Assembly: GCA_965203805.1 (NCBI GenBank)
Contig: OZ241917.1
Location: 1,856,001 to 1,920,000, forward strand
Reading direction: 5' to 3'
Origin: Candidatus Latescibacterota bacterium
GTDB taxonomy: Bacteria > Latescibacterota > UBA2968 > GCA-2709665
DNA length: 64,000 nucleotides
Shown here: piece by piece, positions 44,258 to 64,000 of the stretch
How positions within the stretch are numbered: the first letter of the stretch is position 1
Layout: each line of letters begins with the position of its first letter
Made by a program: the position numbers and the translations under genes
The notes under the pieces: generated by a model
Told to the model about the DNA's origin: nothing
Seen by the model: the letters and a program-made list of their open reading frames with translations, nothing else
Databases searched by the model: none

Positions 44258-44604
44258 CAAAACGTCCCTGAAAAACTCGATGTGCATCTCATCGTCTACA
44301 ACTATAGTACCCACAGACACTCCAAGGTGAAACGATGGCTTTCGCAAAGACTCAGATAACACCTTCACGTTACCCCGACCTAGCATCCTGGCCCAACCAG
44401 GTCGAGATCTGGTTCAATATCATCACTCAGAAGGCCATCAGGCGCGGCTGCTGTCAGATCCGTCAAAGAACTCATCGATAAAAAACAAAGCTTCACCGAC
44501 AACTACAACGAGTCGGCGAAACCTTTCGTATGGAACGCCACCGCACAATCCATCATCCAAAAAGCCGAATGTTTTTGCAGAGGTATTTCTGGGACGCAAC
44601 ACTC
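44258..44604 (+). pseudogene. IS630-family transposase C-terminal remnant
   Basis: Manual translation DVHLIVYNYSTH..VKRWL..., NQVEIWFNIITQKAIRRG, YNESAKPFVW with internal stops; truncated at the IS256 end. Confidence 0.75.
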
Positions 44605-47700: not shown

Positions 47701-48106
47701 GACTTGGGGCCGACCGACGAACGACAGGCCACGAGACACGCTCCGGTCTCTCGCGGAAGAAGGTATAGATCCGTTCTTTGATTTCCAGTTCCGCTCGTTC
47801 AATGTCTACCGAACGTGCAAATTCAGCGACGACACTTGCACCACCCTCGCGGGTTGATGAGCGTATTGTAGCCACATCCCTCACGCCACGTACAAGCGAC
47901 TCGACCGGGGCTGTGAGCCGGGACTCGATCGTAAGTGCAGACGCACCGGGCCACGATATGCTTATTGTGAGTTGTGACGCATCTGCTTCTTCACCTATAT
48001 CGATAGGGATTAGAGGAAAACACATCATTCCAATGGCAAAAATCGCTCCGCAGGCAACCCCCACGGCAACCGGCCGATCCAGCATCTGGTGCGCCAATCC
48101 CCGCAT
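44738..48106 (-). CDS. RND efflux permease (AcrB/AcrD/AcrF family), subunit 2
   Basis: WPGAS...IE..LT.PVE, VDNAIVV, VNNAILLV and RLRPIFITTLTT. Confidence 0.92.
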   Translation of the reverse strand: MRGLAHQMLDRPVAVGVACGAIFAIGMMCFPLIPIDIGEEADASQLTISISWPGASALTIESRLTAPVESLVRGVRDVATIRSSTREGGASVVAEFARSVDIERAELEIKERIYTFFRERPERVSWPVVRRSAPSLRRELRDFFVCFVHGQADASELRSLVRERVRLPLLAIPGVRAVSVQGGGERGVMIELDQDLARSRGIDMNRLRVALAARGMQTRSLDATETHGAISRIQLKSGFENLDEIRRIPLPGAGMARAIPLGDVADVRYRHRDPESVFRINGRNAVAVRIERAHGSDMIRTSGRVREKISDLSGQMPDGIEIIVLNDAGAEIHAELRFLLRRSAVSMLLICLVLAGVFRRFHSVILILASVLLSVLGALSLFFLFGLHLNLVTLAGFTIGFGVCVDNAIVVYDYVRRSADERATDVNLKQAVAQGLRGVMYPVAASNLTTIGAFLPVLFLSEDLQQYFKPLVVSLGLTLLLSLLIALVLIPTFFYRSVLQQESAVRSVDPMFRLYQRTLGMCGRQRVLILALLAWMVGFPIWLLPEQVGQRQANRPNEYASTGMVATRQEYTDWLASRDTMAASDNYSRVTDEQEQTPRSPWRRLSEGSARLYNNVWGNPTALFLRPTLNLILGGATYYLFKDVDHRVDGAPHRHIMREIAEGFSLIVFLEMPFNAHISRLDGIFKGIEKQLLSFSSVISGIITQSSGRYGLIQIRLKDEYKRSAIPYLLYEHLVVYGGNIGGVGFRVWGQDIDPAGKPLGASGVNRQLEVQGYNLRNVGDIAEGIAERLKERRSRRVRDIQVDRTYGPPRYEILARIDHTRTSPLGVDHAMVVDEIQARLDEGSSIQRMSLDGREVPAAISAKAEGGTDLRQLRHVLLEGYAARIGHISHLEKQYARPTIERDNQRYVKEVGFTVLADFNYSEKLVEDLIAKTDLPYGYSLNKGYMRRDLTEDGKKELVFIVLLSVLLVWMITSALFESWTRPILVLIALPLALIGVGAGIYLFGASFNKGGYASLLLLMGISVNNAILLVHNISRTLKARPSSPIDAVVRAAFQRLRPIFITTLTTVAGFLPLMLHGDRSEIWYTLAIGTSGGLVVSSALLVIVVPICMIPRAYLRIRSA

Positions 48107-48108
48107 CT

Positions 48109-51100
48109 TCAGTTCTTCTTCCTGACCAATACAGCGTAGATGATGGGTACGAAAACCAAGGTTCCCAGCGTTGCCAGAGAAATACCGCCCACGATAGCCC
48201 AGGCCAGAGGACGCCGCAGTTCCGCCCCGCTGCCGCTGGACAGGGCCATAGGCAGCAAACCGCATACCGTTGTCATCGTTGTCATACAGATGGGGCGAAA
48301 ACGCTTCCGCCCTGCGTCCAGAATCGCCAGCTGAAGGTCGCCGCTTGTCTGAACACGATGGTGGATGAAGTCCACCTTGACAATAGCGTCGTTCACAACG
48401 ATTCCCACCAGCACGATGCAGCCCAATAGGGACATCACGTTTAGTGTATTTCCCGTCAGCCAGAGGGTCGTCACAACCCCCGTGGATGCCAGTGGGACCG
48501 TCGTGATAATGACAAGCGGAACCATAAGTGATTCGAACTGGGCGGCAAGGATGAAATACACCAGTATTAGCGATATCGCAAGAATCGAGAGGATGTTCCG
48601 GTATTGCTCAAACATGTGCGCGTATTGGGAGCCGCTCTCAATCCAATATCCATTTGGGAGGCCGATCTTGTCCACTATCCGGGCAACCAAATCACGTGCC
48701 TGGTCTCGATGAATCTCATGTAATCCGGCCGTAATGGTGACGGTACGTGCTTGTTCCTGGCGATGGATCTCCTCAAAGTCTTCAGCGGGTTCGAGATGAA
48801 TCAGTTCAGAAAGAGGCACGTGAATGACACGGCCACGTTTACGTACGGGGTATTTGATGGTCAAGATGCGCTTCAGGTCAAGGTTGCCGCGGCCTTCCGC
48901 GAGCACCCGAATGTCGATCTGCTCGACAAAATCGACAAACCGGGTAGGAATACTACCGTCAAGATGCCGCTCGATAAAAAGGGAAAGTTTCTCGGGACGG
49001 ACACCGTATATGATAGCGGCGTCGCGGTCCACACGTACACTATAAGCCCGCCTTCCTTGCGTCAGATCGGATTGCACATTGACAAAGCTCGGTGACTGCC
49101 GCATGAATTCGCAGATTCGTCGACTCAATGCAGCCAGCGTATCCAAGTCAGAACCCACAATCTTGACGTCGAACTGTGCCTGCTGAACTTGAAACAAGTG
49201 TTCAAAGACTGATTCCGGCCGAGAGAGCGTGAGGGTCAGCCCTCCGAATTCAGTGAATGCGCCCTCGAGTCGACGCGCTACCTCCACTCCCGCGGCGTCT
49301 TTCGTCAGTTCTATATCTAGAAGTGCCTTATTCAGACCCGGCTGATACCTACCGTCCATAGCCTCCCGTGTGATTCCCACCGATGCCAGAACTGACTCAA
49401 CGCCACGCTCCGTTAAAACGCGTTTCTCCAGGCGGGTAACTTGCGCCGAAGTCGTCGTCAAACTCGCATCCTGCGGCAATTCGACCTGAACGATCAGACG
49501 TTTCCTGTCCACATCCGGCATCAGTTCCCTGTCCATCTTCAGCGCCATCCAACCGCTTACCGGAAGCGGAAAAACCGCTACGCAGATCACCTTCCATCGG
49601 TGGCGAAGTGCTATCGACAGGGCCCTTTCGTAAATTGCGAAAACACCGGCGACAATACGTTGAAAGAGTTCAATAGACCGCACGAACGGGATCAAGCCTA
49701 TGGATGCATATCGATATACAAGACGAAACCGGCCTCTGTTGACGCGCTCTGGCTTCCACTGCCGGGAAGCAAGCATCGGTAGCAGCGTAATCGACACTAA
49801 TAGGGAGGCTGCCAGCGCTAAGGAGATTGTTACGGCCTGCTCGAAGAAGAGCACTCCCGCCATTCCTTTGATGTACACCAGCGGCAAAAAAACCGACATT
49901 GTGGTAAACGTAGAGGCGGTAATCGCTAACCCGACTTCGTTGGTGCCTCTGACGGAAGCTTCTCGAGAATCGGCCTGAAGCTCCCGATGGCGAAAGATGT
50001 TTTCCAAAACCACGATAGAGTTGTCGACCAGTATCCCAATACCCAGAGCCAGTCCACCCAGCGAAATCACATTCAAATGAATATCTAGGAAGTACATACA
50101 GATGAAAGTCGCAATGATCGACACCGGAATGGAGAGACCGATGATGATTGGGTTTCTCAAGTCCCTGAGAAACAGCACAAGCGAAACAAAAGCGAAGAGT
50201 CCGCCGAGGTAAAGGGACTGCAGCACATTGTCTACGGATTCCCGTATGAACTCTGCCTGATCGAATAGCGGCTGCACCTCAAAATCAGGATAATCCCGAG
50301 AAAACCGGTAGAGATCGCCGTAGACTTTTTCCGACGTATCCACCGTGTTGGAACCCGCCTCCTTGAAGAGATGCAGGGTGATTACCTCGCTGCCGTTCAA
50401 ACGTGTATACCCTCTCCGGTCAGTGAAACCCTTCTCAATGCGGGCGACATCCTTGAGGCGAATCTGTTTGGGCTCATGTCGGACCGGAATACGCCCCATC
50501 TCGTCAATGCGGGTGAACTCCGCCTGAATTCGGAGGGGAAACCGTGAATACCCTTCACGGACCGCTCCACCAAAGCTAACCACATTGAATTGTTTCAGGC
50601 TACTTTCCACGTCCTCAAAGCTAACTCCATATCGCCTGCATTTTTCCGTGTCGAGGTAGACTCGAATCTCTCGCTCCTGGCCTCCTACGACCTGCACATA
50701 GGCAACACCGTCGATCTGTTCAAGGCGACGCTTGACAACGGACTCCGACACCTCCTTTAATTCCATCAGGGCTTCGTTGTAGTCCTGACGCGACCGAGGA
50801 CGTTCAATTCGCGACCCAGTAACGATTAACGTCATGATTGGGGCTGAGGCGGGATCAAAGCGCAATATAGTTGGACGTCCTGCGGCCTGCGGAAGCATTC
50901 CCTGGTCCAAGCTGCTTCGAACCTGAACGAATGCCAGATCCATGTCGCTTCCCCAGCGAAACGACACATCCACAAAGGAAAGGCCCTCACGGGAAACCGA
51001 ACGGATTCTGTGCACTTTGCTCACTGCGCTCAGAACGGCTTCGAGAGGGCGAGTGACGTATTCTTCCACGTCACGAGCGTTCATCGTGGGACACTCGGTT

Positions 51101-51243
51101 CGCACGATAAGTCTTGGTACATCGATATCGGGAAGGAAGTCCACACTCAGCCGGAAGAGTGAATAAACGCCAAGCAGAATAACGCCAAGAAAGCAAACAG
51201 TGGTGGCTACCGGCCGGTTGACCACAACGCGCACAATTCGCAT
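48109..51243 (-). CDS. RND efflux permease (AcrB/AcrD/AcrF family), subunit 1
   Basis: RPVAT, GILVDNSIVVLENI, GIVVNDAI and RFRPICMTTMTT. Confidence 0.93.
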   Translation of the reverse strand: MRIVRVVVNRPVATTVCFLGVILLGVYSLFRLSVDFLPDIDVPRLIVRTECPTMNARDVEEYVTRPLEAVLSAVSKVHRIRSVSREGLSFVDVSFRWGSDMDLAFVQVRSSLDQGMLPQAAGRPTILRFDPASAPIMTLIVTGSRIERPRSRQDYNEALMELKEVSESVVKRRLEQIDGVAYVQVVGGQEREIRVYLDTEKCRRYGVSFEDVESSLKQFNVVSFGGAVREGYSRFPLRIQAEFTRIDEMGRIPVRHEPKQIRLKDVARIEKGFTDRRGYTRLNGSEVITLHLFKEAGSNTVDTSEKVYGDLYRFSRDYPDFEVQPLFDQAEFIRESVDNVLQSLYLGGLFAFVSLVLFLRDLRNPIIIGLSIPVSIIATFICMYFLDIHLNVISLGGLALGIGILVDNSIVVLENIFRHRELQADSREASVRGTNEVGLAITASTFTTMSVFLPLVYIKGMAGVLFFEQAVTISLALAASLLVSITLLPMLASRQWKPERVNRGRFRLVYRYASIGLIPFVRSIELFQRIVAGVFAIYERALSIALRHRWKVICVAVFPLPVSGWMALKMDRELMPDVDRKRLIVQVELPQDASLTTTSAQVTRLEKRVLTERGVESVLASVGITREAMDGRYQPGLNKALLDIELTKDAAGVEVARRLEGAFTEFGGLTLTLSRPESVFEHLFQVQQAQFDVKIVGSDLDTLAALSRRICEFMRQSPSFVNVQSDLTQGRRAYSVRVDRDAAIIYGVRPEKLSLFIERHLDGSIPTRFVDFVEQIDIRVLAEGRGNLDLKRILTIKYPVRKRGRVIHVPLSELIHLEPAEDFEEIHRQEQARTVTITAGLHEIHRDQARDLVARIVDKIGLPNGYWIESGSQYAHMFEQYRNILSILAISLILVYFILAAQFESLMVPLVIITTVPLASTGVVTTLWLTGNTLNVMSLLGCIVLVGIVVNDAIVKVDFIHHRVQTSGDLQLAILDAGRKRFRPICMTTMTTVCGLLPMALSSGSGAELRRPLAWAIVGGISLATLGTLVFVPIIYAVLVRKKN

Positions 51244-51255
51244 AAGCGCCAAGCC

Positions 51256-52413
51256 TCAGCGTTGAACCACAATGACGCTGGCGTCGTGGGCGAGATTAAA
51301 ATGTCCCGATACGATCAATTCTTCGCCTTCTATGAGACCTTCTTCAATTTCGATTAATTCGTCGTTCTCCAACCCAGTTCTTACGTAACGCCATTTTGCC
51401 AAACCACCCTCATGTACGAAAATCAGCTTCCGGTCGTCACGGACAAGCAGAGCATCCCTGGGAACGAGTAGGCGCTTCCTGAACACACGGGTTTCAACAT
51501 CGACTTTGGCGAACATACCTGGCTTGATCCTGTGTTCGGGGTTGTCGATCCAGATTTGAATGTCACACATACCGCTTTCAGAGTCAACCACCGGGTTAAT
51601 CACTCGAATCGTTCCGCCGAACTTCTCGCCCGAAAAAGCGTGGAGACGTATTGATACGGGGGCGCCAACCCTCGCCAACGGCAACTCTCTCTCAAGGATA
51701 CCGACTTCAAGTGTCAGGGAATCGAGCCCTACCAGCCGCATTAAATCCTGGCCTTGCGCGACCGTACCGCCATTACCGATTTCCAGGTCGGTCACATACG
51801 CGTTGAAACGGGCTCTGATGACTGTATTGTCTACCTTTAGTTTCGCCTCTGCGACATCCAGTCTTGCCCGCGTAAGGCCCGTACTGCTGGCAAGCCACGC
51901 CTTGCGCGAGTTCTCCGACGCCAGCGCCAAGGCATCCATATCGTCAACATTGGCACTGTCGACCGTCTCTTCCATTTCCTTCTTTAAACGTCCGCCCCTG
52001 TCCAAGTGGTTTCCCACAAGGGCTAGGGCGGCATATTCACGCAATGCACGGGTCATCTGATCCTTCGCCTTCATATAAGCGATACGATAGGGTTCGCCGT
52101 CGATCTCAATTACAATGTCGCCCTCGCGGACAAAACTACCCTCCCCGACATGCAAACGATGTACCTGTCCGGAGACCCGGGCGACGACACGCGTCTCGAT
52201 ACGAGGCCTGAAAACTCCTTCCGAAGAGATTCTTCTCACGAGATCCCGTTTACGGACCGTCTCCACCACGACTGGCGTATTCGGAGACTCGAATTCGGGA
52301 AACGCGTCCAGTGCTTTGTCTCGCGAAGTCGCGGATGGATTGAGGGCATTCCAAACCACAAACCCCACGGTTCCAAGCCCAAACCCCAGCACAATATAAA
52401 ATAGACGTTTCAC
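51256..52413 (-). CDS. RND periplasmic adaptor (membrane fusion protein)
   Basis: N-terminal TM, VSGQV..LHVGEG..V..GD, IRARF, KPGMFA and V.TG motifs. Confidence 0.9.
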   Translation of the reverse strand: MKRLFYIVLGFGLGTVGFVVWNALNPSATSRDKALDAFPEFESPNTPVVVETVRKRDLVRRISSEGVFRPRIETRVVARVSGQVHRLHVGEGSFVREGDIVIEIDGEPYRIAYMKAKDQMTRALREYAALALVGNHLDRGGRLKKEMEETVDSANVDDMDALALASENSRKAWLASSTGLTRARLDVAEAKLKVDNTVIRARFNAYVTDLEIGNGGTVAQGQDLMRLVGLDSLTLEVGILERELPLARVGAPVSIRLHAFSGEKFGGTIRVINPVVDSESGMCDIQIWIDNPEHRIKPGMFAKVDVETRVFRKRLLVPRDALLVRDDRKLIFVHEGGLAKWRYVRTGLENDELIEIEEGLIEGEELIVSGHFNLAHDASVIVVQR

Positions 52414-52866
52414 TGTTTCGACACCCGTACGCGTCGCATAGCGGTTAACCTTTGCAGACAAAGAAGGACACGGTTTTCGTAGGTTCAATGTCAGTCAAAA
52501 ACCATTGATAGAGAGCCGCGAATGTGTCAAGTGGAGAGTTTCGCGACGACAATGTAACGGCGCATCGAACCTTTATTCGTCACTCTTCAGCAAACCAGAA
52601 TCGGACTCTTTCAGAAGTTTAAGTGCGAAATGAGAACCAAGAAGCCCGCAATCCCAAGTACACCTGCGATATCTAGTCCGAATTGAGAAATAACACTTCC
52701 GACGTATCGAAGAGTTGATGGCAATCCCCATCAGCCGTCTCTTTGACCAGATTCGCAGTATCAGAAAAAAGTCCCCGAATACTCCAATAGTCGAGCATTC
52801 GAAGACAACGGGATATTCAACAGGCGGATTTATGTGGTACTAATTCATTCTCCGGTCAGTCTTATA

Positions 52867-53874
52867 TCATTCCGACGGTTCCCAATGATTGCATATTAAC
52901 TCCAGGTCGTGCAATGCAGCCTCTTCGAGGTTTGCGATTTCCAAAAGACGTTTGTTAAGTTTTTCTAATGTCGGTATCAAGGCTCTTTTTTGGGCAATAT
53001 AACAGAGGTTTCGGAATACAAGCCATTTTTGGGAAATCGTCTTGAATTGCCTCGCCAACTGACACAAACGACGATCTCGCAACGAGACCGCCCCGAATTC
53101 CAGAAATTTCGCGTGACCCTCACGCTCGGGGATTACCATCTGAGTTTGTCGGAAAACCTGATCTAGTAGCTTACGTGCATTCTCCTGCTTGAGCCATTTC
53201 CAGTGTTCCAAGTCGTTAGCGAGTGATCGCAGACCCGTCAACCCGAAACAGGTACCAGGTACGTGGAAACTGTCGCCATGCATAAATTGGATATTCTTAT
53301 TAATCGATCGTATAGTCTCGTCGGACGTCAGGTTCCAACGGGGTTCCGAACATTTGATTTCCAGCCACGTAAATCTTGGGATTTCATTTGATCCCCAGGC
53401 TTCCGTCAATCCGGAGATCGGCAGACTTCCTCGGAACAACTTAGTTGGCGATGGATCTACAATATGTACCATGTCCATTTCGTCGTCGTACCCAGCAAGA
53501 ATAACGGCGTGAGATGAATGATGGCCTAGTCCCGGATAGTAGTAACGTTCTAGATAATACGTGTCGGCTACCGCCGGTACCGGAACGCCCTCATCTATTC
53601 GCGACTTAGCGCATTTCCAGGCAGTTTCACCATCTCGTTCGTGATGCACTGTTACATGAATACCACATTGTCTTAATCTCGTCTGAAAATGAGTGATACG
53701 TGGACTAATTTTCACTTCTGAACTGCCTTCCAGTTGGTATGAGAAATACCACTCGTCGTGCAATACGGTGGCAGTCGTGTACCCAAAAAACTGCAACATT
53801 ACATCTAATGCCACATAATCACAGGGATACGAATCGCAATCGCAGAAAGGAATTCCGGATATAAGTCGTCCCAT
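52867..53874 (-). CDS. BtrH-like protein (BtrH_N papain/C39-like fold; putative ACP-dependent acyltransferase)
   Basis: N-terminal Cys (YPCD), PV...D.YYL..Y...H..H...LAGYD, and a helical C-terminus (GL.GL..LA...ER..HA.FL...LE). Confidence 0.7.
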   Translation of the reverse strand: MGRLISGIPFCDCDSYPCDYVALDVMLQFFGYTTATVLHDEWYFSYQLEGSSEVKISPRITHFQTRLRQCGIHVTVHHERDGETAWKCAKSRIDEGVPVPAVADTYYLERYYYPGLGHHSSHAVILAGYDDEMDMVHIVDPSPTKLFRGSLPISGLTEAWGSNEIPRFTWLEIKCSEPRWNLTSDETIRSINKNIQFMHGDSFHVPGTCFGLTGLRSLANDLEHWKWLKQENARKLLDQVFRQTQMVIPEREGHAKFLEFGAVSLRDRRLCQLARQFKTISQKWLVFRNLCYIAQKRALIPTLEKLNKRLLEIANLEEAALHDLELICNHWEPSE

Positions 53875-54646: not shown

Positions 54647-55780
54647 TCAGGGTGTGAAAATGAAAATCTGATCCGTAGTCGACTCCCAATCTTGACTGTC
54701 ATCCCTCCACTTGATTCCGCCGGCGACCATCACGCGGCCGTCTTCAAGGAGCGTGGCCGTAGCGAAAGACCTGCGCGGGCTGATGCTGTATCCGGTATTG
54801 GAAAATGCGTGCGTTACGGGATCATACAGTACGATATCGCCGTTGTACGAGCGGATAAGAAGCACGTTGCCGGACGGCAGCAGCAGGGCGGCACTGGGAT
54901 CGATCGTTGAGACGCCGGCCGGTGAAAAGGTATTGGCTTCCGGGTCGTAGATCTCCGCCGTCTGCACGGATGGCCCTCTGCCGGCGCCGCCGCCTATGAT
55001 AAGGACCCTCCCGTCCTCCAGTAGCACCGCCTTATGATTCCTGCGGTCGAACTGCAAGTTGCCTGCTTCCGAAAGGGCTTCGGCCGAGGGATCATAGATA
55101 AGATTCCGTCCCAGCAATCCTGGGTCCCGTCCAACATTCTGTCCTCCAACGATCAACACCCTGCCGTCCTTCAACAGAGTGGCCGTATGGCCGATTCGGG
55201 AACGATCCATCCTGAGCAAGGGGGAGAATGGGCCTGTAGTCGGGTCGAAGACACCCGCGTATAACGTGCTGGTCAAGAAGACCTTTCCGTCGAGAAGCAG
55301 AGTGGCAGTAAGAATCCCAATTCTCCCAGGCAAAACTGCCACAGGGTTGAATCTGCCGGAATGAGCATCGTACCTCTCAATGGGGAGATTGGGATTTCCG
55401 GGGATGATCAGGACCCGGCCGTCGGGAAGCAATATGCCGTGGTCCTCGCTGCGACTGGCGGTCAGGTCTCCCGTTGGCGTTGAGGTCCCGGTTTCAGGGT
55501 CGAATATTTCCGCACTGATGAGACGCTTCGGCTGAGGAATGGGGGTATCCGGGGGAGGCGGCCCCGTGAGTACGACCGGCAGTTCTTCGAGGCCGCCAGC
55601 GATCAGGACCTTGCCATCGTTCAGTAACGTCGCGGCATGCCAATACCGGGGTCGGGTCAGGTTTCCAACCTCGTGAAGACCCCTTTCAAGGGCCGGCGGC
55701 TCTGATGTGGTTACCGAATCGCTTCCGCAAGCCCACAAGCTCGTGACGACAAACAGCGCAAACAGGATTCTGGTGGTCAT
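54647..55780 (-). CDS. Kelch/galactose-oxidase-type beta-propeller lipoprotein
   Basis: Lipobox LWA-C; repeated R..H.ATLL.DG.VLI.GG and AEI(F/Y)DP. Confidence 0.88.
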   Translation of the reverse strand: MTTRILFALFVVTSLWACGSDSVTTSEPPALERGLHEVGNLTRPRYWHAATLLNDGKVLIAGGLEELPVVLTGPPPPDTPIPQPKRLISAEIFDPETGTSTPTGDLTASRSEDHGILLPDGRVLIIPGNPNLPIERYDAHSGRFNPVAVLPGRIGILTATLLLDGKVFLTSTLYAGVFDPTTGPFSPLLRMDRSRIGHTATLLKDGRVLIVGGQNVGRDPGLLGRNLIYDPSAEALSEAGNLQFDRRNHKAVLLEDGRVLIIGGGAGRGPSVQTAEIYDPEANTFSPAGVSTIDPSAALLLPSGNVLLIRSYNGDIVLYDPVTHAFSNTGYSISPRRSFATATLLEDGRVMVAGGIKWRDDSQDWESTTDQIFIFTP

Positions 55781-55819
55781 TTTCTGTCTCCTTTCCGACC
55801 GAAGGATACACGATGTGGA

Positions 55820-55859
55820 CAGACAGGAATGTCCGCCCCACCTGCAGACCGGATTCCTC
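55820..55859 (+). repeat. 40-bp direct repeat, copy 2, upstream of the Kelch gene
   Basis: CAGACAGGAATGTCCGCCCCACCTGCAGACCGGATTCCTC. Confidence 0.85.
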
Positions 55860-56393
55860 TGCATGACGGTTCCGCGCAGGCGGCGGACATCCTGCTTCTC
55901 AGGTGTCGCCGCGTGTAAATAGCGCAGAGATGATCCCATGCTGCAGTAGATCCTTCGTCGGCCTGGGGACCCTTCGACGGGCTCGCTTCGACAGGCCACT
56001 TCGGCAAGCTCAGTGCAAGCAGCACAAGCAGGGCAAGTCCTCTGGATGACAGCCGGAAGCTTCGTGCTCGTGTAACCAGGTTGATCAAACCTTCCTAAAC
56101 ACCATCTCTTAAACGGATTTCGCCAATGTTGTTAAAAATGAGGTGCCGGTTTGTAATCCGGTGTCTTCGGACAAATGGGAAACGGTCGCCTGAGATGGTT
56201 TAATTAAACTGGGAGAAACTGTCACATGCCGCTGATCTTACGTTTGATCAAATCAAAAACGAACACGATTTACAGCGATTGGAAAAACAACTGATGACGA
56301 GACATCCTCCCAATATCATCTTCATGGTATGTGAAGATCAATAGGGTGCGATTGTCTAAAATCCAACATTTCCGCTAGATGACAAAGCCCAAT

Positions 56394-56657
56394 TTAGCTG
56401 CTCGCCAATTTACCGGACACATAACGAACCATAGAATTCACAGAATCGAAGAGGTCGACGCGTAATTCTTCGTCATCCACCTCAATTCCAAACTCCTGTT
56501 CAAGAGCAAAGATGATTTCTAGTGCGGCAATCGAGTCAACTCCCACGCCCTCGAAAAGCAACTCATCATCGGCAATGTCGTTAGGGTCAATACTCAGGCG
56601 GAGTGACTGGACGATCGCAGATTTTACACGCTGTCCAATGAGCGTCAATTCTTCCAT
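56394..56657 (-). CDS. Acyl carrier protein
   Basis: 87 aa, acidic; GVDSIAALE phosphopantetheine-Ser motif; LEQEFGIEV; overlaps the upstream stop. Confidence 0.9.
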   Translation of the reverse strand: MEELTLIGQRVKSAIVQSLRLSIDPNDIADDELLFEGVGVDSIAALEIIFALEQEFGIEVDDEELRVDLFDSVNSMVRYVSGKLASS

Positions 56658-58561
56658 CCGTTTTTCTTGTCCTCGGTAAAGTGATTGATTGCCACATCAA
56701 CCGCCTTTTGAATACCCTCTGCCGACGAAATACATATGGCGGGTAATCCAAAAGACCGTTCCAATTGTCCCAACTTACAGGCTACTTCGGCTTGAGTCAG
56801 CGGTCGCGGTCTTATCGACGTTCGACCATACCTAGCCTGCACTCCCTTTTCAAAGTCTGACGTGGCTAGCAACAATGTGGGCGCGTGACAAAATGCGCGA
56901 ATGCCGTTGACCGTGTCCTGAATATAGTCTTCGGGATCGACACTGTTTACCACCAATATGCAAGCATCAGGCTTCACACCCATTAAAAAAGCAATGGTGG
57001 GCAGCGTCAAAGTATGCTTGTCGCATACGTCATAGGGAACCGTTCCGGATTGGGTACCGACCAAAATGAGATGAGGTCGCGTTTGGTAGCAAATCTCGCG
57101 CATCTTCGCATCGAGAAACGGAATATAGTATTCAGTCGGAATTCGAACAGAGGGTGCGTAGCCCATTGGAAACCCATAATCCATGCCGAATAGCTCGGAA
57201 TGATGTTCAGTCCCAATCTGTGCAATCCGAAACCCTAGTTCTAGCAATCTTCGCCGGAACGCTAATTGAAGAGAAAATTTACCCTGTTGCGAACTCGTAC
57301 CTACTATAGCCAAAACCGGTACATCCACTTCGGGGATCGATGAGCATCCATCGATTGTACGGCTCGCCTCTTCAAACGACAGCTCAGGATAATACAGTCT
57401 CAATCCTTTAGAAGCAGCGACTTCATGCAAGTCACCGTACTCCGCGTGAGGTAGTGCAAGTAGGCTGAACACGTTTACTTCATTATCGAGTGCGACCTGA
57501 ACGCACTTTCTAAGGAAATCGCTCTTACGGATTCGACTCAATTCATCAACGTAACCAAGAATCAGAGTGTCTGCATGCTCCAGACACGCCGACAGCCGGG
57601 ATGTGATCCGGAGACCCTTATTACACAGGCCGATTGCTTCCCCTGCATCGCTGCCGACCAATCCCTTTCCGACAGGATCGGATATGCCCACGACCTGAAA
57701 GCCCAATAGGTCATTCGCACGAACTACGGCGTGCATTTCCTTATTATACGGGTAGAGGCAGGCCTTGCGTATCCACGAGAAGCGATCCTCTGCAGCAGAC
57801 GGGACCTTGATGGATGACGCAGGGTTTGTTACGAGAGGAGGCGCCGTTTCGGATACTGCGTGGTTACTCAGAATCTCACGGATCTGTTGCAAGCAGGCAC
57901 CAGGGTAAGCCTGCCGGATTAGCGCGATCAGACCGGTTATATGTGGCGCAGCGAAACTGGTACCGCCCATCATTATTTCCTTCGGCTCCAACCAACACAC
58001 CCGTTGGGGGTCGCCGCGCGCAATGCACTCAATCGGTCGACCGGCGCGATAATAGTAGTCGTACGGGCCAAGCAACGCACCCGAACCGACACCAATGACG
58101 TCGGCTAACAACGCAGGATACGAGTCACGTCCCTCGTTATTTGCGGATGCTACCAAAAGAGTACCAACGCTGACTGCATTGCGACAGACGTTTGCCAACT
58201 CGTCACGATAAGCGATATCCGTTGTTCCCAAGCTTAGATTTACAATGTCGATTCCGTGCGCAACTGTCCATTCGATGGCCGCTATGAGCAGTCGTGGTTC
58301 CGTCGACAAGGATTCGTCAAAAACTCGGATACTATAAATTGAGGCGTCCATCGCTTTCCGCCGGATAATACCTGCACAGGCCGTTCCGTGACCCACGCAG
58401 TCTTCAAAATCAGAACCATAGATTAAATCCCCTGCTTTACCGACTGATATAGAAACCCCGCCTGTCAACGGACCAACCTTCGGGTGGTCCGGCACGATGC
58501 CACTATCTATAACTGCGACGGCAACGCCGCGTCCGGTCAAGTTTGAAAACGGAAAACTCAT
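56645..58561 (-). CDS. S8 (subtilisin) peptidase fused to a DUF1611-like P-loop domain
   Basis: Triad VAVIDSG / HGTACAG / GTSFAAPH, no signal peptide; C-terminal half has GTSSQQGKFS, GTE and VGTQSG. Confidence 0.8.
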   Translation of the reverse strand: MSFPFSNLTGRGVAVAVIDSGIVPDHPKVGPLTGGVSISVGKAGDLIYGSDFEDCVGHGTACAGIIRRKAMDASIYSIRVFDESLSTEPRLLIAAIEWTVAHGIDIVNLSLGTTDIAYRDELANVCRNAVSVGTLLVASANNEGRDSYPALLADVIGVGSGALLGPYDYYYRAGRPIECIARGDPQRVCWLEPKEIMMGGTSFAAPHITGLIALIRQAYPGACLQQIREILSNHAVSETAPPLVTNPASSIKVPSAAEDRFSWIRKACLYPYNKEMHAVVRANDLLGFQVVGISDPVGKGLVGSDAGEAIGLCNKGLRITSRLSACLEHADTLILGYVDELSRIRKSDFLRKCVQVALDNEVNVFSLLALPHAEYGDLHEVAASKGLRLYYPELSFEEASRTIDGCSSIPEVDVPVLAIVGTSSQQGKFSLQLAFRRRLLELGFRIAQIGTEHHSELFGMDYGFPMGYAPSVRIPTEYYIPFLDAKMREICYQTRPHLILVGTQSGTVPYDVCDKHTLTLPTIAFLMGVKPDACILVVNSVDPEDYIQDTVNGIRAFCHAPTLLLATSDFEKGVQARYGRTSIRPRPLTQAEVACKLGQLERSFGLPAICISSAEGIQKAVDVAINHFTEDKKNGWKN

Positions 58562-58672
58562 CGCACCTGTTCACGAAAAAGCTAAAGGAGGACGGCGATA
58601 TTCTCACGAATATCGCATTGCCAGGAAATCGGTTAGAGTTGTTTCCCCCAACTTCTCCTAAAAGCAGAAATA

Positions 58673-59164
58673 CTAACCTCCGTCATCGGTCTCGGTTGCC
58701 ACCGGAAATCCCGCCTCGGCCCACAACGGCCATCCACCGGAAAGCACCCTGACGTTTGCATATGTGAATTCTCGTGCGAGGCGCCGCGCTACATCATAGC
58801 TACTCATACATGTAGCATTTGCACAGTAGACGATAATATCGGTATCCGCCGGATAAGGCTCAAGCACACGATGCAATTCGGAAGTCGAATAGTGATATGA
58901 CAGACGGACAGCACCCGGAATATGCCCACCATTAAATGCCTCAGCCGAGCGAGCATCTACAAATAACGCTGCTCCCCTGTCATATTGGTGCTTAGCTTCA
59001 ACTAAATCCAATGTCCCAATAGCCTGTTCTTCTAAAGTGCCGACATTTGCAAGAGGAAGTCCAGCCACCGTCCGCCGGGCATAAAACCACTCGGTCAATT
59101 GAAGGACGGCACAATACATCACAATTAATATGAATACCAGTGAAACTATAACCCATCGCCACAC
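58673..59164 (-). CDS. Membrane-anchored rhodanese-like protein
   Basis: N-terminal TM; FVDARS..F..GHIPGA; YCANATC; LSGGW..W..AGFP. Confidence 0.85.
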   Translation of the reverse strand: MWRWVIVSLVFILIVMYCAVLQLTEWFYARRTVAGLPLANVGTLEEQAIGTLDLVEAKHQYDRGAALFVDARSAEAFNGGHIPGAVRLSYHYSTSELHRVLEPYPADTDIIVYCANATCMSSYDVARRLAREFTYANVRVLSGGWPLWAEAGFPVATETDDGG

Positions 59165-59195
59165 GAATTCGTATCCAATTCGGGACTCTTATTAA

Positions 59196-59385
59196 CCTTG
59201 ATTCGAAAGTCCCCGGGGACGTTAATTCGAATATGTGCTTTAAATAAAGGCGATTAGACGGCGGAAACCGAGGATACACCAGGTCACTGGACGTGAAGGG
59301 AAAAAACATCTTTCTTTATGTCGACAACGCCCCGTTTCGGAGGGTTTTATCGCGTCGCCGCGTTGCTGTTTTTTTCGGATTGAGG
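59196..59385. mobile_element. 190-bp MITE with IS1380-type ends, copy A
   Basis: TTAA|CCTTGATTCGAAA ... TTTTCGGATTGAGG|TTAA; aligns end to end with 63205-63397. Confidence 0.8.
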
Positions 59386-61068
59386 TTAATTGCGTGCCGT
59401 TGAAAAAAAACTGTTTAAGAAACTTTGTTTCTGGAGCAACGCCTGAGGTTGACCCTGTTCAACTACGGTGCCGTTATCAATGCAGATCACTTCATCCACA
59501 TTTCGGACGACGTTTAGTCTATGACTGATAACTAGGATTGTCTTTCCAGCAAATATCCGTCGGACATTTCGAAGAATCGTGTGTTCATTTTGGGGATCCA
59601 AAGCTGCGGTCGCTTCGTCCATGATTAGCAACTCCGCAGGATTCAACAGGGCTCTAGCAATTGCAAGCCGTTGTCGTTGCCCACCCGACATCTGTACTCC
59701 TTGCTCTCCTATAGTTTCATGTTGATTCAGATCGTTCAGACCAACCATCTCCATGACGCGGTCGATTTCTGATGAGTTATACCGAGCCGATCCGTACCGG
59801 ATATTCTCGCCGACGCTATCGTGAAATAGGTGGACTCGTTGGCTAACCAAACTGATATTTCGCCTCAAGTCCGACAGTTCGAATTCTCGCATTTGAACAT
59901 TGTCAATGTTGATGCAACCTCGATCGGGAAGATGAAGCCCACAAAGCAAATTGGCAATCGTCGACTTTCCACTTCCACTCGCACCTACCAAAGCATACGA
60001 TTTCCCTTTTGCCATACTAAATTTCACTCCTCGAAGTACTGTCTGACTCTCAAAACTAAAATAAACATCTTGAAGGTCAATCTGCCTCCCGAAGGTAAAC
60101 TGTTTTCGTCCAGCAAAAAAACCAACCTCCGAGGGAATCTGCATAAACTCCAACACGCGACGCATGGAAACCAACCCTCGAACGAGCCCAATGTACATAT
60201 CGTGCAGGTTCCGGACTGGCTGGAAAAGACGTACCGAGTACTGTAGGAAGGCAACTAGAGCGCCAAGCGACATGACGTCTTGCATAACCTGATACGCTCC
60301 GAATCCCATAATGAAGAGGGGGGTTAACGCGGCCAACCCTCCTGACACACTATTCATTGAGGCATAGTACAGGACATTGCGCATGATTAATTCAATTAGA
60401 TCATCCGACATAAAACGAAATCTATCGGTTTCTCGCCTCGAACTATTCGTAAGTTTAATTAATGAGACGTTTTTAAATCGTTCAATTACGTAGCTGGAAA
60501 TGTCGGACCCCTTTTTCTGAATCTTTTCGATATTCCGTCTAATCCTAGGCTGAAAATAGGTCAGATTTAATACAAACAACGGGACGCCGATTACAGTCAG
60601 CAAAAAAAGGGAGGCATTTAGCCACATCAGCAATACGATCAGCCCAATCAAAGTCAGGACACTGTGGATCGAGTGCAACGCGCTGGAAGTCAGCATCGAC
60701 TCAATCACTGCCACATCACTATTGAGCCGGTAGACCAAATCTCCTGTCTTTCGATTGTCAAGTGAGCTTATCGGTAAATCCAACAACTTACGAAACATCC
60801 GCACTCGCATATCCCGAACAATGCGATTACTGCACCACGCGTAGAGGTAGTTTGATGCGAAAGACAAGATCATATTAGTTAACATCAAACCGCAGAGAAG
60901 TCCGATCGCGACTAGAAGAGTGGTATATTGTTTGGCTGGAATTATGTCATCGATAATCGTCTTCGTAATGTACGGTGGAGCTAAGGAAACCGCAGTGGTA
61001 AGGACAAGACAGATCACAACGATTAATCCCTTAAAGCGGTAGGGATTCAGGAATTTGGCAAATCGCAC
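59386..61068 (-). CDS. ABC exporter, fused permease and ATPase (no C39 domain)
   Basis: 6-TM domain, GASGSGKST, MSGGQRQR, MDEATAALD and ISHR. Confidence 0.93.
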   Translation of the reverse strand: MRFAKFLNPYRFKGLIVVICLVLTTAVSLAPPYITKTIIDDIIPAKQYTTLLVAIGLLCGLMLTNMILSFASNYLYAWCSNRIVRDMRVRMFRKLLDLPISSLDNRKTGDLVYRLNSDVAVIESMLTSSALHSIHSVLTLIGLIVLLMWLNASLFLLTVIGVPLFVLNLTYFQPRIRRNIEKIQKKGSDISSYVIERFKNVSLIKLTNSSRRETDRFRFMSDDLIELIMRNVLYYASMNSVSGGLAALTPLFIMGFGAYQVMQDVMSLGALVAFLQYSVRLFQPVRNLHDMYIGLVRGLVSMRRVLEFMQIPSEVGFFAGRKQFTFGRQIDLQDVYFSFESQTVLRGVKFSMAKGKSYALVGASGSGKSTIANLLCGLHLPDRGCINIDNVQMREFELSDLRRNISLVSQRVHLFHDSVGENIRYGSARYNSSEIDRVMEMVGLNDLNQHETIGEQGVQMSGGQRQRLAIARALLNPAELLIMDEATAALDPQNEHTILRNVRRIFAGKTILVISHRLNVVRNVDEVICIDNGTVVEQGQPQALLQKQSFLNSFFSTARN

Positions 61069-61107
61069 AATTGCGTTTATTGATGAGATGTGTGGCTCCG
61101 CGGAAAA

Positions 61108-61800
61108 CTAAAAGGGATCACTGAGGACACCGCGCCCCTTGATAAACTCCAATAGAGACATACCGTGCATTTCTTTCAAGGGTGAATCAGCGAAACCCTC
61201 AACATTAATCTCAAAAGCAGGCATATGATTGTAAACAAGATCAACGAAGAACAAGGATGTGAATTGCTCCGCTTGGATTAGAGGAAGGTGGCATCGAATT
61301 ATCCTGTTTTCTGGACTGACAAGAAAAACCACAGGAGTTCGCACGAACAACCCATCGGAATCCTCTGGTTCTAGCGGAACACCTAACTGAAACGTCAACC
61401 TGAAGGCTCGCTTAAATTTAGTCAATTCTGATTGATCCCCATTTGAAATGGCGTAAATCGGCATCTCTAAGGAGTCCTTTAGGTTGTCGTGGATGTGTTG
61501 CAGCGCCCGTAATATTAGATTGATGCAAGGTTGGCACGAATTCGGCGAAAACAAAAACACCAAGCCGGTCTTTGATCCTGAAAAGTCAGTACTTACCGTA
61601 TCATTGCCAGTCGTGCGAATTGACAATTTTGGAAATCCGCGACCGACTATCAGATCCTGCCGGTAGGTATTGACCACAAACGTGCGGTAAAACCGTAGAT
61701 CGGTGAGATGTAATCTGAATAACCAGGCGAGGGAGACGACTAGACCAATTAGGAAAAGCAGATTCGATACTACCAATAATCTCGTTATCCGCATAGTCAT
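61108..61800 (-). CDS. Membrane-anchored thioredoxin-fold (redoxin-like) protein
   Basis: N-terminal TM; FLFSPNSCQPC (CxxC); TP.VFLV cis-Pro motif. Confidence 0.7.
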   Translation of the reverse strand: MTMRITRLLVVSNLLFLIGLVVSLAWLFRLHLTDLRFYRTFVVNTYRQDLIVGRGFPKLSIRTTGNDTVSTDFSGSKTGLVFLFSPNSCQPCINLILRALQHIHDNLKDSLEMPIYAISNGDQSELTKFKRAFRLTFQLGVPLEPEDSDGLFVRTPVVFLVSPENRIIRCHLPLIQAEQFTSLFFVDLVYNHMPAFEINVEGFADSPLKEMHGMSLLEFIKGRGVLSDPF

Positions 61801-62239
61801 ACCGAAACTTTACAACAACCGTCGTTGCAGTCCATAGAGGTTATTGTAGTTTCTCGAATGAATTCTGTACGGTTCAAAACCACCGAATCCCCCGGGTAGG
61901 GTATTTGTCGCACTCCATATTTTACATCCTTATAATCTTATAAATTCGGCAATATCCAGCTTCTCGGAATCCAATCAAATGGACTGCCACAACGCGCGGA
62001 CTGTCTATTGAATTCCAAAAAAAATAGAAGCACTTTCCATTCCAGTAAGGCCTCCATTGAACTCCTGATTCTGGTCTTCGCACCTTCGGAAGATGTGGAG
62101 CTAAACCCACTATCAGCAGGGAATCTGCACTGAATTGCTCCCCAATCAAATACGACGAACGCGTCTAATACCACTGAATGCATCAGCCCCATTTGCAAAG
62201 AATCCTTGGAACCCGCGCCAGAATACGGATCCGATCCGC

Positions 62240-62590
62240 CAACTGAACGCACTGCGACAGGTCCGCTTTCAAGCCAACCGACGTCTACTGGACGTCCAAA
62301 GCATCAGCCACGACTGGACCGTCGGCGAAGATGCCTTCCAAAAGCTCTAACAGCCGCAACAAATCGACGGCCAACGGGTATGTGCCCTACGCTTCGGCGG
62401 CCGTCGCACACAGATGCTCTTGCGGGCACTGGTCATCTTCCGAACGCAGGCGCGCATCCTAAGATCCGGACTCACCCTCGACAAGACCACGCCAAACCAC
62501 CTACGCAGCGCATTCGACAGACTCGAAACTTTGATCGACCAACATTGCGATCATGCCAAACTCGCTGCTTGAAGCTTGACTCAAACACCA
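62240..62590 (+). pseudogene. Degenerate transposase-like fragment
   Basis: Frame reads LRQVRFQANRRLLDVQSISHD...GEDAF..*..DGQRV.ALRFG...AFDRL...KLAA* with an internal stop; resembles a widespread mobile-element protein C-terminus (from memory). Confidence 0.5.
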
Positions 62591-62659
62591 CAAAAACCGC
62601 CGACTAAGCAGGCTAGGGCTGCAGAAAGAATGCGCCAACCCAAGCTATTGCCACTGGCT

Positions 62660-62800
62660 CTCTGTGCTCTTTGCGCTGGATGAAGCCTTCCCCAAACACG
62701 ACATCAACCCCGCTGGCCGCGTAAGATCGAAGCGATTTCCCAGCCGCACACTGGCGACAACCAATCCCATAGAATCCACGTTCACCACCGCAGCAGAGGG
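62660..62800 (+). pseudogene. IS256-family transposase fragment
   Basis: DFPAAHWR and TNPIESTF in adjacent frames, the same motifs as in the IS256 at 43 kb. Confidence 0.6.
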
Positions 62801-62912
62801 ATTCTTCGATCCAATAAACAGCACCAATATCATACGTTTAACGTAATTACCGAAGTTAACGAAAGACCGAAATACGGATCCGATCCACCATTTCAGTCAA
62901 CGAGAGTAATAC

Positions 62913-63134
62913 CTAAATGTTATACCATTCCGACCAATAGGTATCTCCCGAATTACAAAGGGCAACTTCGATCTCATTCGAGGCATTGCAAGAATAGTGG
63001 TCTCTCCGCTGCAACTGACCATTGTGGCACCTTTTTTCGAACCCGTCATTGAACCATTGATATCCATCGTACCATTCGTACGCGTATATCAATGTATCCT
63101 GTCGACGGTTCCGTGGTTTTCGTAGCAAGTTCAT
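62913..63134 (-). CDS. 73-aa putative RiPP precursor peptide
   Basis: Strong RBS AAGGGAGG before ATG 63134; basic leader-like MNLLRKPRNRRQDTLIYAY, then a Trp/Tyr/Asn/Cys-rich core. Confidence 0.7.
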   Translation of the reverse strand: MNLLRKPRNRRQDTLIYAYEWYDGYQWFNDGFEKRCHNGQLQRRDHYSCNASNEIEVALCNSGDTYWSEWYNI

Positions 63135-63204
63135 GTTGCCTCCCTTCTGAGAGTTTGAGAATTGGTGGATCGGAATCCGTAGTTTCGGCAAATCGCAAAG
63201 CAAA

Positions 63205-63397
63205 CCTTGATTCCTCATTTTTCGAGGACGTTTATTTGAATTTGTGTCAGTCAGTTAAAAAGGCGATTAGACTGCTGATTACCAGGATACAACAGGACAC
63301 TGTACGTGAACGGAAGAAATGTCCTTCCTTAAGACCATTTCGGCACCATTCGGAGAGTTCCGTCGCGTCGCCGCGTTGCGATTTTATCGGATCGAGG
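63205..63397. mobile_element. 193-bp MITE with IS1380-type ends, copy B
   Basis: CAAA|CCTTGATTC ... TATCGGATCGAGG|CTAA; shares AAAGGCGATTAGAC, GGATACA, ACGTGAA and TCGCGTCGCCGCGTTGC with copy A. Confidence 0.8.
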
Positions 63398-63447
63398 CTA
63401 ATGAATGAGATAGATGCATCGATCGGATAAATCGACACGATTTACAG

Positions 63448-64000
63448 CTAGTTATTTGCACCAAAGTCAAGCGCATAGACCGCCACATTGCCATTGGAAT
63501 TTTCCGACTCTGCTGCCGACGGCTCACTCCATACATACAACTGATCCCGCGAAGATGCTATACTATTCCACGGGAGCGATATAACTTCGGATTCGAGGTG
63601 CTCCTTTGCTGACCTACTAAAGTCATAGACTCTGACGGCCTCTTCTGTGTCGAGGTCGTAAATCGACCAGTTGGTAATACTTGCGACGGTCGTGTCCTCG
63701 GTCGTGCCAGGGTTTATGTGCGAAACTATCAAAAAACGACCATGGACGATTGTCATGCTACGTACAGTTGTCATTTTCAATCCTCTCATATCTTCACGAC
63801 TCCCTTGTTCAATTCCATGATACCTTGTCGGCAACGGTACATATCCTTTCGGACGACGACCAAATCGCCTGATGGTTTTCCCAGTCTCGGCGTCGATTTC
63901 TCTAACCATGTAGTCGTTTGGTCCCAGGAAATACAGCCTATTCCGTACCACGCTGTAGCATAGATGCGCAAAGGCTTTCATGCGATATGAGATAAACCTC
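63448..64000 (-). CDS. Probable beta-propeller protein (5' end outside the window)
   Basis: Frame is open to the window edge; short beta-strand blades (RLYF...Y.VREID..TG..IRRFG, WSIYDLD, QLYV). Confidence 0.55.
   Translation of the reverse strand, partial: RFISYRMKAFAHLCYSVVRNRLYFLGPNDYMVREIDAETGKTIRRFGRRPKGYVPLPTRYHGIEQGSREDMRGLKMTTVRSMTIVHGRFLIVSHINPGTTEDTTVASITNWSIYDLDTEEAVRVYDFSRSAKEHLESEVISLPWNSIASSRDQLYVWSEPSAAESENSNGNVAVYALDFGANN

Follow-up and report, generated by a model that had tools for sequence, protein, structure and literature searches.

What is the function of a protein that carries an S8 peptidase at one end and a DUF1611-type domain at the other, and whose gene runs directly into that of an acyl carrier protein (ACP)? 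The question is raised by a locus of Candidatus Latescibacterota bacterium (GenBank assembly GCA_965203805.1, contig OZ241917.1, positions 1,856,001 to 1,920,000 of the forward strand), a stretch of 64,000 nucleotides that we refer to as the window. Within it, the interval 56394-58561 is filled by two open reading frames (ORFs) on the minus strand, one for the fusion protein, P0001 (56645-58561), and one for the ACP, P0002 (56394-56657). The original prediction for this interval was that the fusion could cut the leader from a nearby peptide and acylate the new N-terminus. We found that the fusion and the ACP are the conserved core of a widespread cluster that is predicted to mature and export small Cys-rich peptides. 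On balance, P0001 is probably a two-headed maturation enzyme of a pathway of the RiPP type (ribosomally synthesized peptide with post-translational modifications), in which an S8 leader peptidase and a DUF1611 head working with the holo-ACP prepare a product for export. This reading builds on the identities of the domains, their fold, their invariant residues, the prevalence of the fusion, its pairing with the ACP and the existence of a precursor family.

The fusion protein and its carrier

The N-terminal head of P0001 belongs to the subtilases. The Pfam model Peptidase_S8 (PF00082) matches residues 10-235 with 98 bits against a cut-off of 21.8 (E 8.1e-28), and the catalytic residues follow in the order Asp-His-Ser, with D19 in the motif VIDSG, H58 in GHGT and S202 in GTSFAAP. 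All three are invariant in the 54 fusion proteins that we aligned, and the oxyanion residue N142, present in P0001, is kept in 41 of these 54. Subtilisin BPN' is matched at E 1.5e-21; because residue 7 of P0001 aligns with residue 20 of mature BPN', we conclude that P0001 has neither a signal peptide nor a prodomain. Judged from these alignments, the S8 head is a cytoplasmic, prodomain-less subtilase. Its best named S8 model is the QhpE equivalog of NCBIfam (NF049966; E 7.6e-42), with a score of 143.1 bits that lies below the cut-off of 165. The head is followed by a linker rich in Pro and Ser, of which residues 240-258, with a predicted local distance difference test score (pLDDT) below 50, are the sole long low-confidence segment in the model of full-length P0001. 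The predicted TM score (pTM) of this model is 0.60, compared with 0.87 for the C-terminal domain alone, a pattern of two well-folded heads with a disordered linker between them.

The C-terminal head has, according to its predicted structure, the DUF1611 fold. An AlphaFold (AF2) model of residues 256-638, built from 33 homologues, reached a pLDDT of 87.3. Its top three matches in Foldseek were solved DUF1611 proteins, namely TM0796 (2g0t, E 1e-15), DgcN (7xrj, E 2.5e-13) and Ava_3511 (2obn), and VIA-align gave Z scores of 29.6, 24.6 and 28.6, respectively, over 305-316 aligned residues (305 for DgcN). The two-lobed fold of TM0796 and Ava_3511 is matched over 315-316 residues at a root-mean-square deviation of 3.0, spanning model residues 2-372. 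The comparison with DgcN had been suggested in the original prediction, and since both Foldseek and VIA-align match that protein, a fold other than that of DUF1611 can be set aside. The next tier of VIA-align matches, at Z ~14, consists of dethiobiotin synthetase, CobB, CTP synthase and MinD for the P-loop half and of amine dehydrogenase and DapB for the Rossmann half; cyclic 2,3-DPG synthetase is among the Foldseek matches of the P-loop half.

Sequence comparisons place this head within the DUF1611 proteins at varying distance. The P-loop model DUF1611_C (PF07755) matches residues 410-612 with 37.1 bits (cut-off 25; E 2.9e-9), and the model of the N-terminal DUF1611 lobe (PF17396), which is precomputed on many of 120 homologues, has no match in P0001 at E 0.01. 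A profile of the family recovers the TM0796 sequence at E 1.1e-6 and does not match DgcN (7xrj) even at E 10; DgcN is related to the C-terminal domain of P0001 by fold only. Among NCBIfam models, at E values up to 10, the domain matches only TIGR04066, a 'peptide maturation system protein' (E 8.7e-31), with 107.2 bits, below the cut-off of 200, over profile positions 2-286 of 361. Similarly, the nearest clusters among its language-model neighbours in the Atlas are TIGR04066-type proteins of Bacillota.

The domain consists of a Rossmann-like half, which carries YPYNKEMH (270-277), and a P-loop half, which carries GTSSQQGKF (421-429), TEHH (451-454), QSG (504-506), N539 and D542. We found that YPYNKEMH, eight consecutive residues at the start of the Rossmann-like lobe, is invariant in all 54 sequences, as are G421, T422, Q426, G427, K428, F429, T451, E452, Q504, S505, G506, N539 and D542. 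The polar residues among these persist across sequences that fall to 28-35% identity. Together, these invariant residues argue for an active site and against a scaffold.

The gene for the ACP is tightly joined to that for the fusion. Its ATG (56657-56655) falls within the final codons of P0001, which ends with a TGA at 56647-56645, so that the two overlap by 13 nt. The PP-binding model (PF00550) matches P0002 with 45.7 bits (cut-off 20.8; E 8e-12) and generic ACP models of NCBIfam match as well, whereas the carrier model TIGR04069 found no match in P0002 at E 0.01. We scanned 62 related loci with iterated hidden Markov model (HMM) searches for relatives of the window's genes, and detected the ACP in 50: in 42 it directly follows the fusion on the downstream side (gap -19 to +200 nt), and in eight it lies at another place within the stretch. 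The phosphopantetheine-site serine, Ser42, is invariant in 53 of 53 ACPs, and the residue before it is D (24) or N (27). This conservation supports, at the level of sequence, the ACP as a true partner of the fusion. Thus, the features from which the original prediction set out (a complete D/H/S triad without a signal peptide, a Pro/Ser-rich linker, a domain with GTSSQQGK at residues 421-428 and an ACP start that overlaps the stop of the fusion) were all recovered.

A word-index search returned 739 proteins at E <=0.001; the 120 best that were listed are 604-719 aa long and all contain both PF00082 and PF07755. Where public names are given among the matches listed, these are 'S8 family serine peptidase' or 'NAD-dependent epimerase/dehydratase family protein'. 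Searched exhaustively, the C-terminal domain matched 1,247 representative clusters at E <=0.001, 332 of them at E <=1e-30. The best 150 of the 1,247 (representatives at 50% identity) comprise 124 proteins with both S8 and DUF1611, 18 proteins or fragments with the C-terminal domain only and eight partial or other cases, which indicates that the fusion is the usual form of the family. The 62 related loci come mostly from Candidatus Latescibacterota, with a few labelled Gemmatimonadota, Bacteroidota, Kryptoniota, Erysipelotrichaceae or Clostridia, and one of them, L003, is near-identical (99% identity). In a sample of Latescibacterota, the domain was present at E <=1e-20 in 58 of 121 genomes, in 25 of the 52 of high quality and in three of ten further genomes from the same genus; as many as seven matches occur in one genome, and the source genome has one. 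Selenocysteine was considered for survey rows marked '1 TGA' or '1 TAG' and rejected: two such genes aligned with no internal stop over residues 1-628, and the stops are read-through at the end of the gene.

The precursor peptide and the proposed route

If P0001 matures a peptide, a candidate substrate should be encoded nearby. The precursor ORF starts at 63134 (MNLL...), 4.4 kb upstream of P0001, and reads ...LIYAY-E20. In related loci, small ORFs in the corresponding position have in common with it a leader of the form M..L.KK[TP]..RR...[LIV].[A/T/L]Y, and an HMM of this leader recovers the window ORF at E 8.6e-9 and, in addition, two ORFs outside its training set, in L014 and L053. The core that follows is hypervariable, with 41-58 residues and 2-6 Cys, and in a Bacteroidota example it reaches 115 residues and 10 Cys. 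Because a constant leader with a hypervariable core is the pattern of a RiPP precursor family, the peptide chosen in the original prediction is a real precursor, with a conserved leader that ends in AY and with relatives elsewhere. The same cannot be said for the argument that cleavage after YAY would expose Glu20 and so match the type of substrate used by DgcN. Among the 12 distinct precursors (the window and L003 being counted once), only five have E directly after (A/T/L)Y, and the others have A, A, V, S, S, W and N. Moreover, a Trp lies 1-12 residues past the Y in 11 of the 12, often in EGxW; since conservation runs past AY, it does not define the cut site.

These results suggest a route in two parts. 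The QhpE-like, cytoplasmic S8 head most likely removes the conserved leader from the Cys-rich precursor. The DUF1611 head, of a TIGR04066-like subfamily, would be the catalytic partner of the holo-ACP, whose gene is translationally coupled to that of P0001. Most likely, the phosphopantetheine arm binds to this head, which either loads a small acyl or aminoacyl group onto it or relays one, and the group held on that arm would end on the peptide. The product would then be exported via the ABC, HlyD and RND (resistance-nodulation-division) proteins encoded at the locus, with the assistance of envelope thiol-redox helpers. From the observations above we infer the cut of the peptide by the S8 head and its site, the catalysis by the DUF1611 head and the type of reaction.

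Several observations weigh against this reading of P0001. The two heads make no fixed contact in the full-length model (pTM 0.60), so that channelling between them is not indicated, and we infer contact between the ACP and the DUF1611 head from gene order alone. The ACP was not seen in 12 of the 62 loci; among these, the sequence ends within 150 bases of the gene in six, extends 7.7-10 kb downstream in four and gives a partial match in two. Recognisable precursors stand at the same place in only 11 of 62 other loci. A gene for a radical SAM protein (rSAM) lies within 10 kb of the fusion in only five of the 62, so the pathway is not of the ranthipeptide type throughout. In the HMM alignment, the near-invariant G502 stands at the Glu of the TM0796 motif VFVEGQGA; a Gly at this position makes the use of ATP uncertain and weakens an ATP-driven role. 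Finally, our literature search found no experiment on any member of the fusion family and no link of DUF1611 to peptides or RiPPs.

What chemistry might the DUF1611 head perform? One explanation is that it acts as a DgcN-like N-acyltransferase, which moves an acyl group from acyl-ACP onto the N-terminus, Glu20, exposed by the S8 head. The match to DgcN in fold, the conserved coupling to the ACP and the E that follows AY in the window's own precursor all favour this explanation, and so do minimal clusters that lack a BtrH_N gene. One of these, on the Erysipelotrichaceae contig L063, contains only an rSAM gene, an ACP-like gene whose product has the DS motif, the gene of a 39-aa Cys peptide, the fusion and a pair of ABC genes; with this gene set, the DUF1611 head is the sole non-housekeeping candidate partner for the ACP there, and no other candidate for a transferase is present. 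The variable residue after (A/T/L)Y and the Trp close behind it, however, leave the new terminus undefined, DgcN is undetectable by sequence, a BtrH_N-type gene lies near the ACP, and this analysis identified no acyl-activating enzyme or ACP loader. We regard DgcN-like transfer as unlikely. Cutting and acylation by P0001 as first proposed stand in part: the DUF1611 fold, the pairing with the ACP and the precursor hold up, the Glu20 argument and a kinship with DgcN beyond fold do not, and the activity itself is a possibility.

A second explanation divides the work as in butirosin biosynthesis, where BtrI is the ACP, BtrJ its ATP-dependent loader and BtrH the acyltransferase from ACP to amine. 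BtrH_N denotes a family of papain/C39-like fold that includes the ACP-dependent acyltransferase BtrH. The DUF1611 head would then be a nucleotide-dependent loader of the ACP, in the role that BtrJ has for BtrI, and the BtrH_N/DUF4872 protein encoded downstream would transfer the group to an amine of the cut peptide. Consistent with this, the nearest matches of the P-loop half after the DUF1611 entries are ATP-using amide/anhydride ligases (dethiobiotin synthetase, CobB and CTP synthase), and both BtrH_N and DUF4872 score above their Pfam cut-offs in the window, which makes the BtrH_N/DUF4872 protein a second candidate for transfer from the ACP. Relatives of the BtrH_N type occur in 13 of the 62 loci, and in 25 further loci the ACP is followed by proteins of ~340 aa ('cluster 4'); taken together, the two kinds are present in 37 of the 62, and 35 of 38 such genes start no more than 3 kb after the ACP gene, a tight order in Latescibacterota. 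The link between cluster 4 and BtrH_N is weak, however (Pfam E 1e-5 to 4e-6 in three of six proteins tested; hhalign probability 48%, E 1.8e-4), and a cluster 4 profile searched against PDB sequences returned nothing below E 0.2.

Other evidence also counts against this division of labour. The Gly at the acidic TM0796 position bears against a nucleotide-dependent loader, and Bacteroidota and Bacillota loci contain the fusion and the ACP without a BtrH_N gene. In the PDB, the clade profile of the window's BtrH_N/DUF4872 protein matches the azinomycin proteins AziU3 (7wuw) and Azi29 (8gs1) at E ~1e-8; these are by title not acyltransferases, and the BtrH_N fold family is thus not restricted to acyl transfer. 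A point in favour of the division is that, in a maximum-likelihood tree of 54 fusion proteins from 52 of the 62 loci (ten loci with partial matches only were left out), the window's P0001 falls in a clade of 14 rows (support 100/100), 13 of which have a BtrH_N neighbour. Because kin share their labels, this pattern shows inheritance, not co-evolution. Our literature search returned nothing relevant that ties BtrH to RiPPs, or ACPs to ranthipeptides. Overall, we find the butirosin-like division rather doubtful. The name 'DarH' was tried for the BtrH_N protein and rejected, as the NCBIfam score is 32 against a cut-off of 300 and the DarH of the literature is an unrelated darobactin halogenase.

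A third explanation, in which the DUF1611 head would have no enzymatic role in the maturation of the peptide and would gate the protease instead, either as a regulatory module that senses nucleotides or CoA or by binding the leader, while the ACP serves another purpose, is improbable: the heads behave as independent beads in the model, a Walker-B-like acidic residue is absent and the literature search gave no chemistry for any member of the family, but many polar residues are invariant across the 54 sequences, the pairing with the ACP and its invariant Ser are strictly kept, and TIGR04066-type proteins that stand alone, apart from the protease, are still encoded in the same kind of cluster.

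Returning to P0001 as a two-headed maturation enzyme, we tentatively raise the possibility that the fusion, the ACP and, in Latescibacterota, the BtrH_N protein constitute a new carrier-protein-dependent route of RiPP tailoring, in which the protease frees an amine and a group loaded or built on the ACP by the DUF1611 head is joined to the peptide. The architecture of the fusion is already common in databases, and it is the mechanism that is put forward here. It is unusual for a ribosomal-peptide cluster to include a dedicated carrier whose Ser is invariant, and this points to a post-translational step outside the current RiPP catalogue. If true, the proposal would provide a tailoring route to acylated or aminoacylated Cys-rich RiPPs without GNAT, nonribosomal peptide synthetase or polyketide synthase parts, and the DUF1611 superfamily would gain a second, ACP-linked chemistry beside that of DgcN. 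A function for P0001 would also bear on the TIGR04066/DUF1611 proteins that peptide clusters encode, those of gut and soil Bacillota among them, and the precursor family, with its constant leader ending in (A/T/L)Y and its hypervariable Cys-rich core, offers a concrete substrate.

Neighbouring genes and related loci

The features of the locus are collected in Table 1. On the minus strand, from upstream to downstream, the genes encode a kinase/sigma-54 activator, a SPASM rSAM, a propeller, the precursor, a thioredoxin-fold protein, an ABC exporter, a rhodanese, P0001, the ACP, a Kelch lipoprotein, the BtrH_N/DUF4872 protein, an HlyD adaptor and two RND pumps.

Table 1. Features of the fusion locus (window coordinates; residue numbers refer to P0001)
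Feature	Position	Strand	Details
S8 peptidase-DUF1611 fusion gene (P0001)	56645-58561	minus	638 aa
S8 subtilase domain, residues 1-235	57857..58561	minus	triad D19/H58/S202; N142 at oxyanion position
Pro/Ser-rich flexible linker, residues ~236-262	57776..57856	minus	low pLDDT; disordered in model
DUF1611-fold domain, residues 263-638	56648..57775	minus	PF07755, TIGR04066, fold match
Acyl carrier protein (P0002)	56394-56657	minus	87 aa; PF00550; phosphopantetheine-site Ser42 in GVDSIA
Precursor peptide	62913..63134	minus	73 aa; leader MNLLRKPRNRRQDTLIYAY, then Trp/acid-rich core with 3 Cys
BtrH_N + DUF4872 protein	52867-53874	minus	PF14399 46.8 bits (cut-off 29.7), PF16169 37.8 bits (cut-off 28)
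Rhodanese-domain protein with N-terminal hydrophobic segment	58673..59164	minus	PF00581 E 1.1e-17
ABC exporter, fused permease/ATPase, without C39 peptidase domain	59386..61068	minus	PF00664 E 4.6e-47, PF00005 E 2.4e-34
Membrane-anchored thioredoxin-fold (AhpC/TSA-like) protein	61108..61800	minus	PF00578 E 6.7e-5, 23.3 bits, below cut-off of 26
Secreted 6-bladed beta-propeller	63448..64000, on past window end to L002 2671	minus	407 aa; PF17170 (DUF5128) E 1.9e-9
HlyD-type adaptor	51256-52488	minus	Pfam; relatives in 35 of 62 loci
Two AcrB-family RND pumps	48109-51252, 44738-48265	minus	Pfam

The products encoded around the core recur to different degrees in the 62 loci. Relatives of the ABC exporter were found in 51, of the thioredoxin-fold protein in 25, of the propeller in 20 and of the rhodanese in 14. 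The propeller gene is often paired with a precursor gene: pairs of a precursor and a secreted DUF5128-type propeller occur at 3730-7005 of L014 (two pairs), at 164-2837 of L008 and at 62913-64000 of the window. Candidate roles for the propeller are those of an extracytoplasmic partner, of an immunity protein and of a receptor for the peptide.

The SPASM rSAM is encoded 2 kb upstream of the precursor. Its best models are SCIFF (247.5 bits against a cut-off of 425), PapB and QhpD (E 1.6e-67), and it remains below every equivalog cut-off; all three score better than TIGR04068, for which the protein reaches 151 against a cut-off of 500. Within the window's clade, no other locus has an rSAM within 10 kb of the fusion except the near-identical L003. 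Directly upstream of the rSAM gene, past the right end of the window (L002 5253-10139, minus strand), lies a regulator of 1,628 aa with a Ser/Thr kinase, an AAA_16 STAND-type ATPase, TPR, GAF, a sigma-54 activator domain and HTH_8. A scan for a sigma-54 -24/-12 promoter upstream of the precursor, with a simple consensus, gave 19 matches in the window at <=2 mismatches against 27 expected, none of them well placed, and scans for sigma-70 promoters and for terminators gave counts at or below shuffle level.

Between the ACP gene and the BtrH_N gene, a Kelch-repeat protein with a lipoprotein-like N-terminus is encoded at 54647-55999 (minus strand), with a G+C content of 0.58 against ~0.47-0.52 around it. 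Among the 62 related loci it occurs only in the near-identical L003; the other loci of the clade have at this place a 214-aa protein of no known family. A homologue of that protein is encoded ~18 kb downstream in the window (tblastn E 8e-31, 33% identity). A DDE transposase, fragments of a Mutator-family transposase and a TPR protein stand between it and the cluster; the window positions noted for this region are 37829-38434, 38749-40128 and 42920-44386, all on the minus strand. Because the homologue lies beyond transposase genes, the peptide cluster seems to have been split by insertion sequences.

Upstream of the fusion, L015, L022, L024, L026 and other paralogous loci have different genes in place of the propeller and rhodanese set. 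These encode Rce1-like CPBP proteases (17 loci), GNAT acetyltransferases (13 loci), TPR proteins, MauE/DoxX proteins and glycosyltransferases of the GT28 or GT4 type. The differing sets indicate that the core of fusion and ACP is combined with several sets of tailoring genes. In public sequencing data, 11 runs from several studies contain at least half of 56394-63140, none of them recorded as RNA; one of the 11 is labelled sponge metagenome, as are three runs that contain 0.32-0.42 of this interval.

Comparison with known systems

How does the window's system relate to those already described? With butirosin BtrI, BtrJ and BtrH it shares a dedicated ACP near a BtrH_N/DUF4872 protein. Unlike the butirosin system, it has no ATP-grasp loader in the window, its acceptor would be a peptide and not an aminoglycoside, and its nearest solved BtrH_N relatives are AziU3 and Azi29. 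Like QhpE, the leader protease in the maturation of quinohemoprotein amine dehydrogenase, the S8 head is short, cytoplasmic and prodomain-less, and it is encoded near a SPASM rSAM that matches QhpD. In contrast to QhpE, it falls short of the equivalog cut-off and is fused to DUF1611, and no qhp dehydrogenase genes were found among the scanned neighbours.

The DUF1611 head shares with the D-glutamate N-acetyltransferase DgcN and the structural-genomics proteins TM0796 and Ava_3511 a two-lobed fold over the whole domain and a P-loop of the form GT....GK.T. Its identity to these proteins is only 15-20%, however, and the YPYNKEMH, TEHH and QSG of the window's family differ from the TM0796 motifs in the alignment. 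PDB entry 7xrj names DgcN an N-acetyltransferase, and DgcN is cited as the key gene of a D-glutamate pathway (PMC12363236, PMC11685415). The head of P0001 instead shares its polypeptide with a protease and has an ACP as its partner, and is not tied to a pathway of free amino acids.

By sequence comparison, the closest known system is the Bacillota cassette of TIGR04066, TIGR04069, S8 peptidase and ABC transporter that adjoins a CcpM-type rSAM (TIGR04068), a 'Cys-rich peptide maturation system' that is itself defined by comparative genomics alone. In Roseburia and Paenibacillus, TIGR04068, TIGR04066, the carrier-related TIGR04069, a subtilase and an ABC transporter form one predicted bacteriocin cluster, and split forms exist in which TIGR04066, TIGR04069, subtilase and ABC genes adjoin the rSAM; for the role of TIGR04066 in these clusters, the excerpts of the two sources offer nothing beyond a guess at immunity (PMC4573289, PMC10731318). 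The window encodes the same kinds of product as this cassette, namely a protein of DUF1611 type, a small carrier in which a Ser is conserved, an S8 protease, an ABC exporter and a precursor rich in Cys, and the motif YPYNKEMH is common to P0001 and the Erysipelotrichaceae homologue. Unlike the cassette, the window has the protease and the DUF1611 protein in one polypeptide, an ACP that resembles ordinary ACPs, and additional genes for the BtrH_N/DUF4872, propeller, thioredoxin-fold, rhodanese, HlyD and RND proteins. In addition, its proteins score below the curated cut-offs (107 against 200 for TIGR04066 and 151 against 500 for TIGR04068). Since all of the cassette's models remain below cut-off, the system is a variant and not a strict member. 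From these comparisons, we conclude that the window's system is, on sequence grounds, a fused, Latescibacterota-type variant of the TIGR04066/TIGR04069/S8 peptide-maturation cassette.

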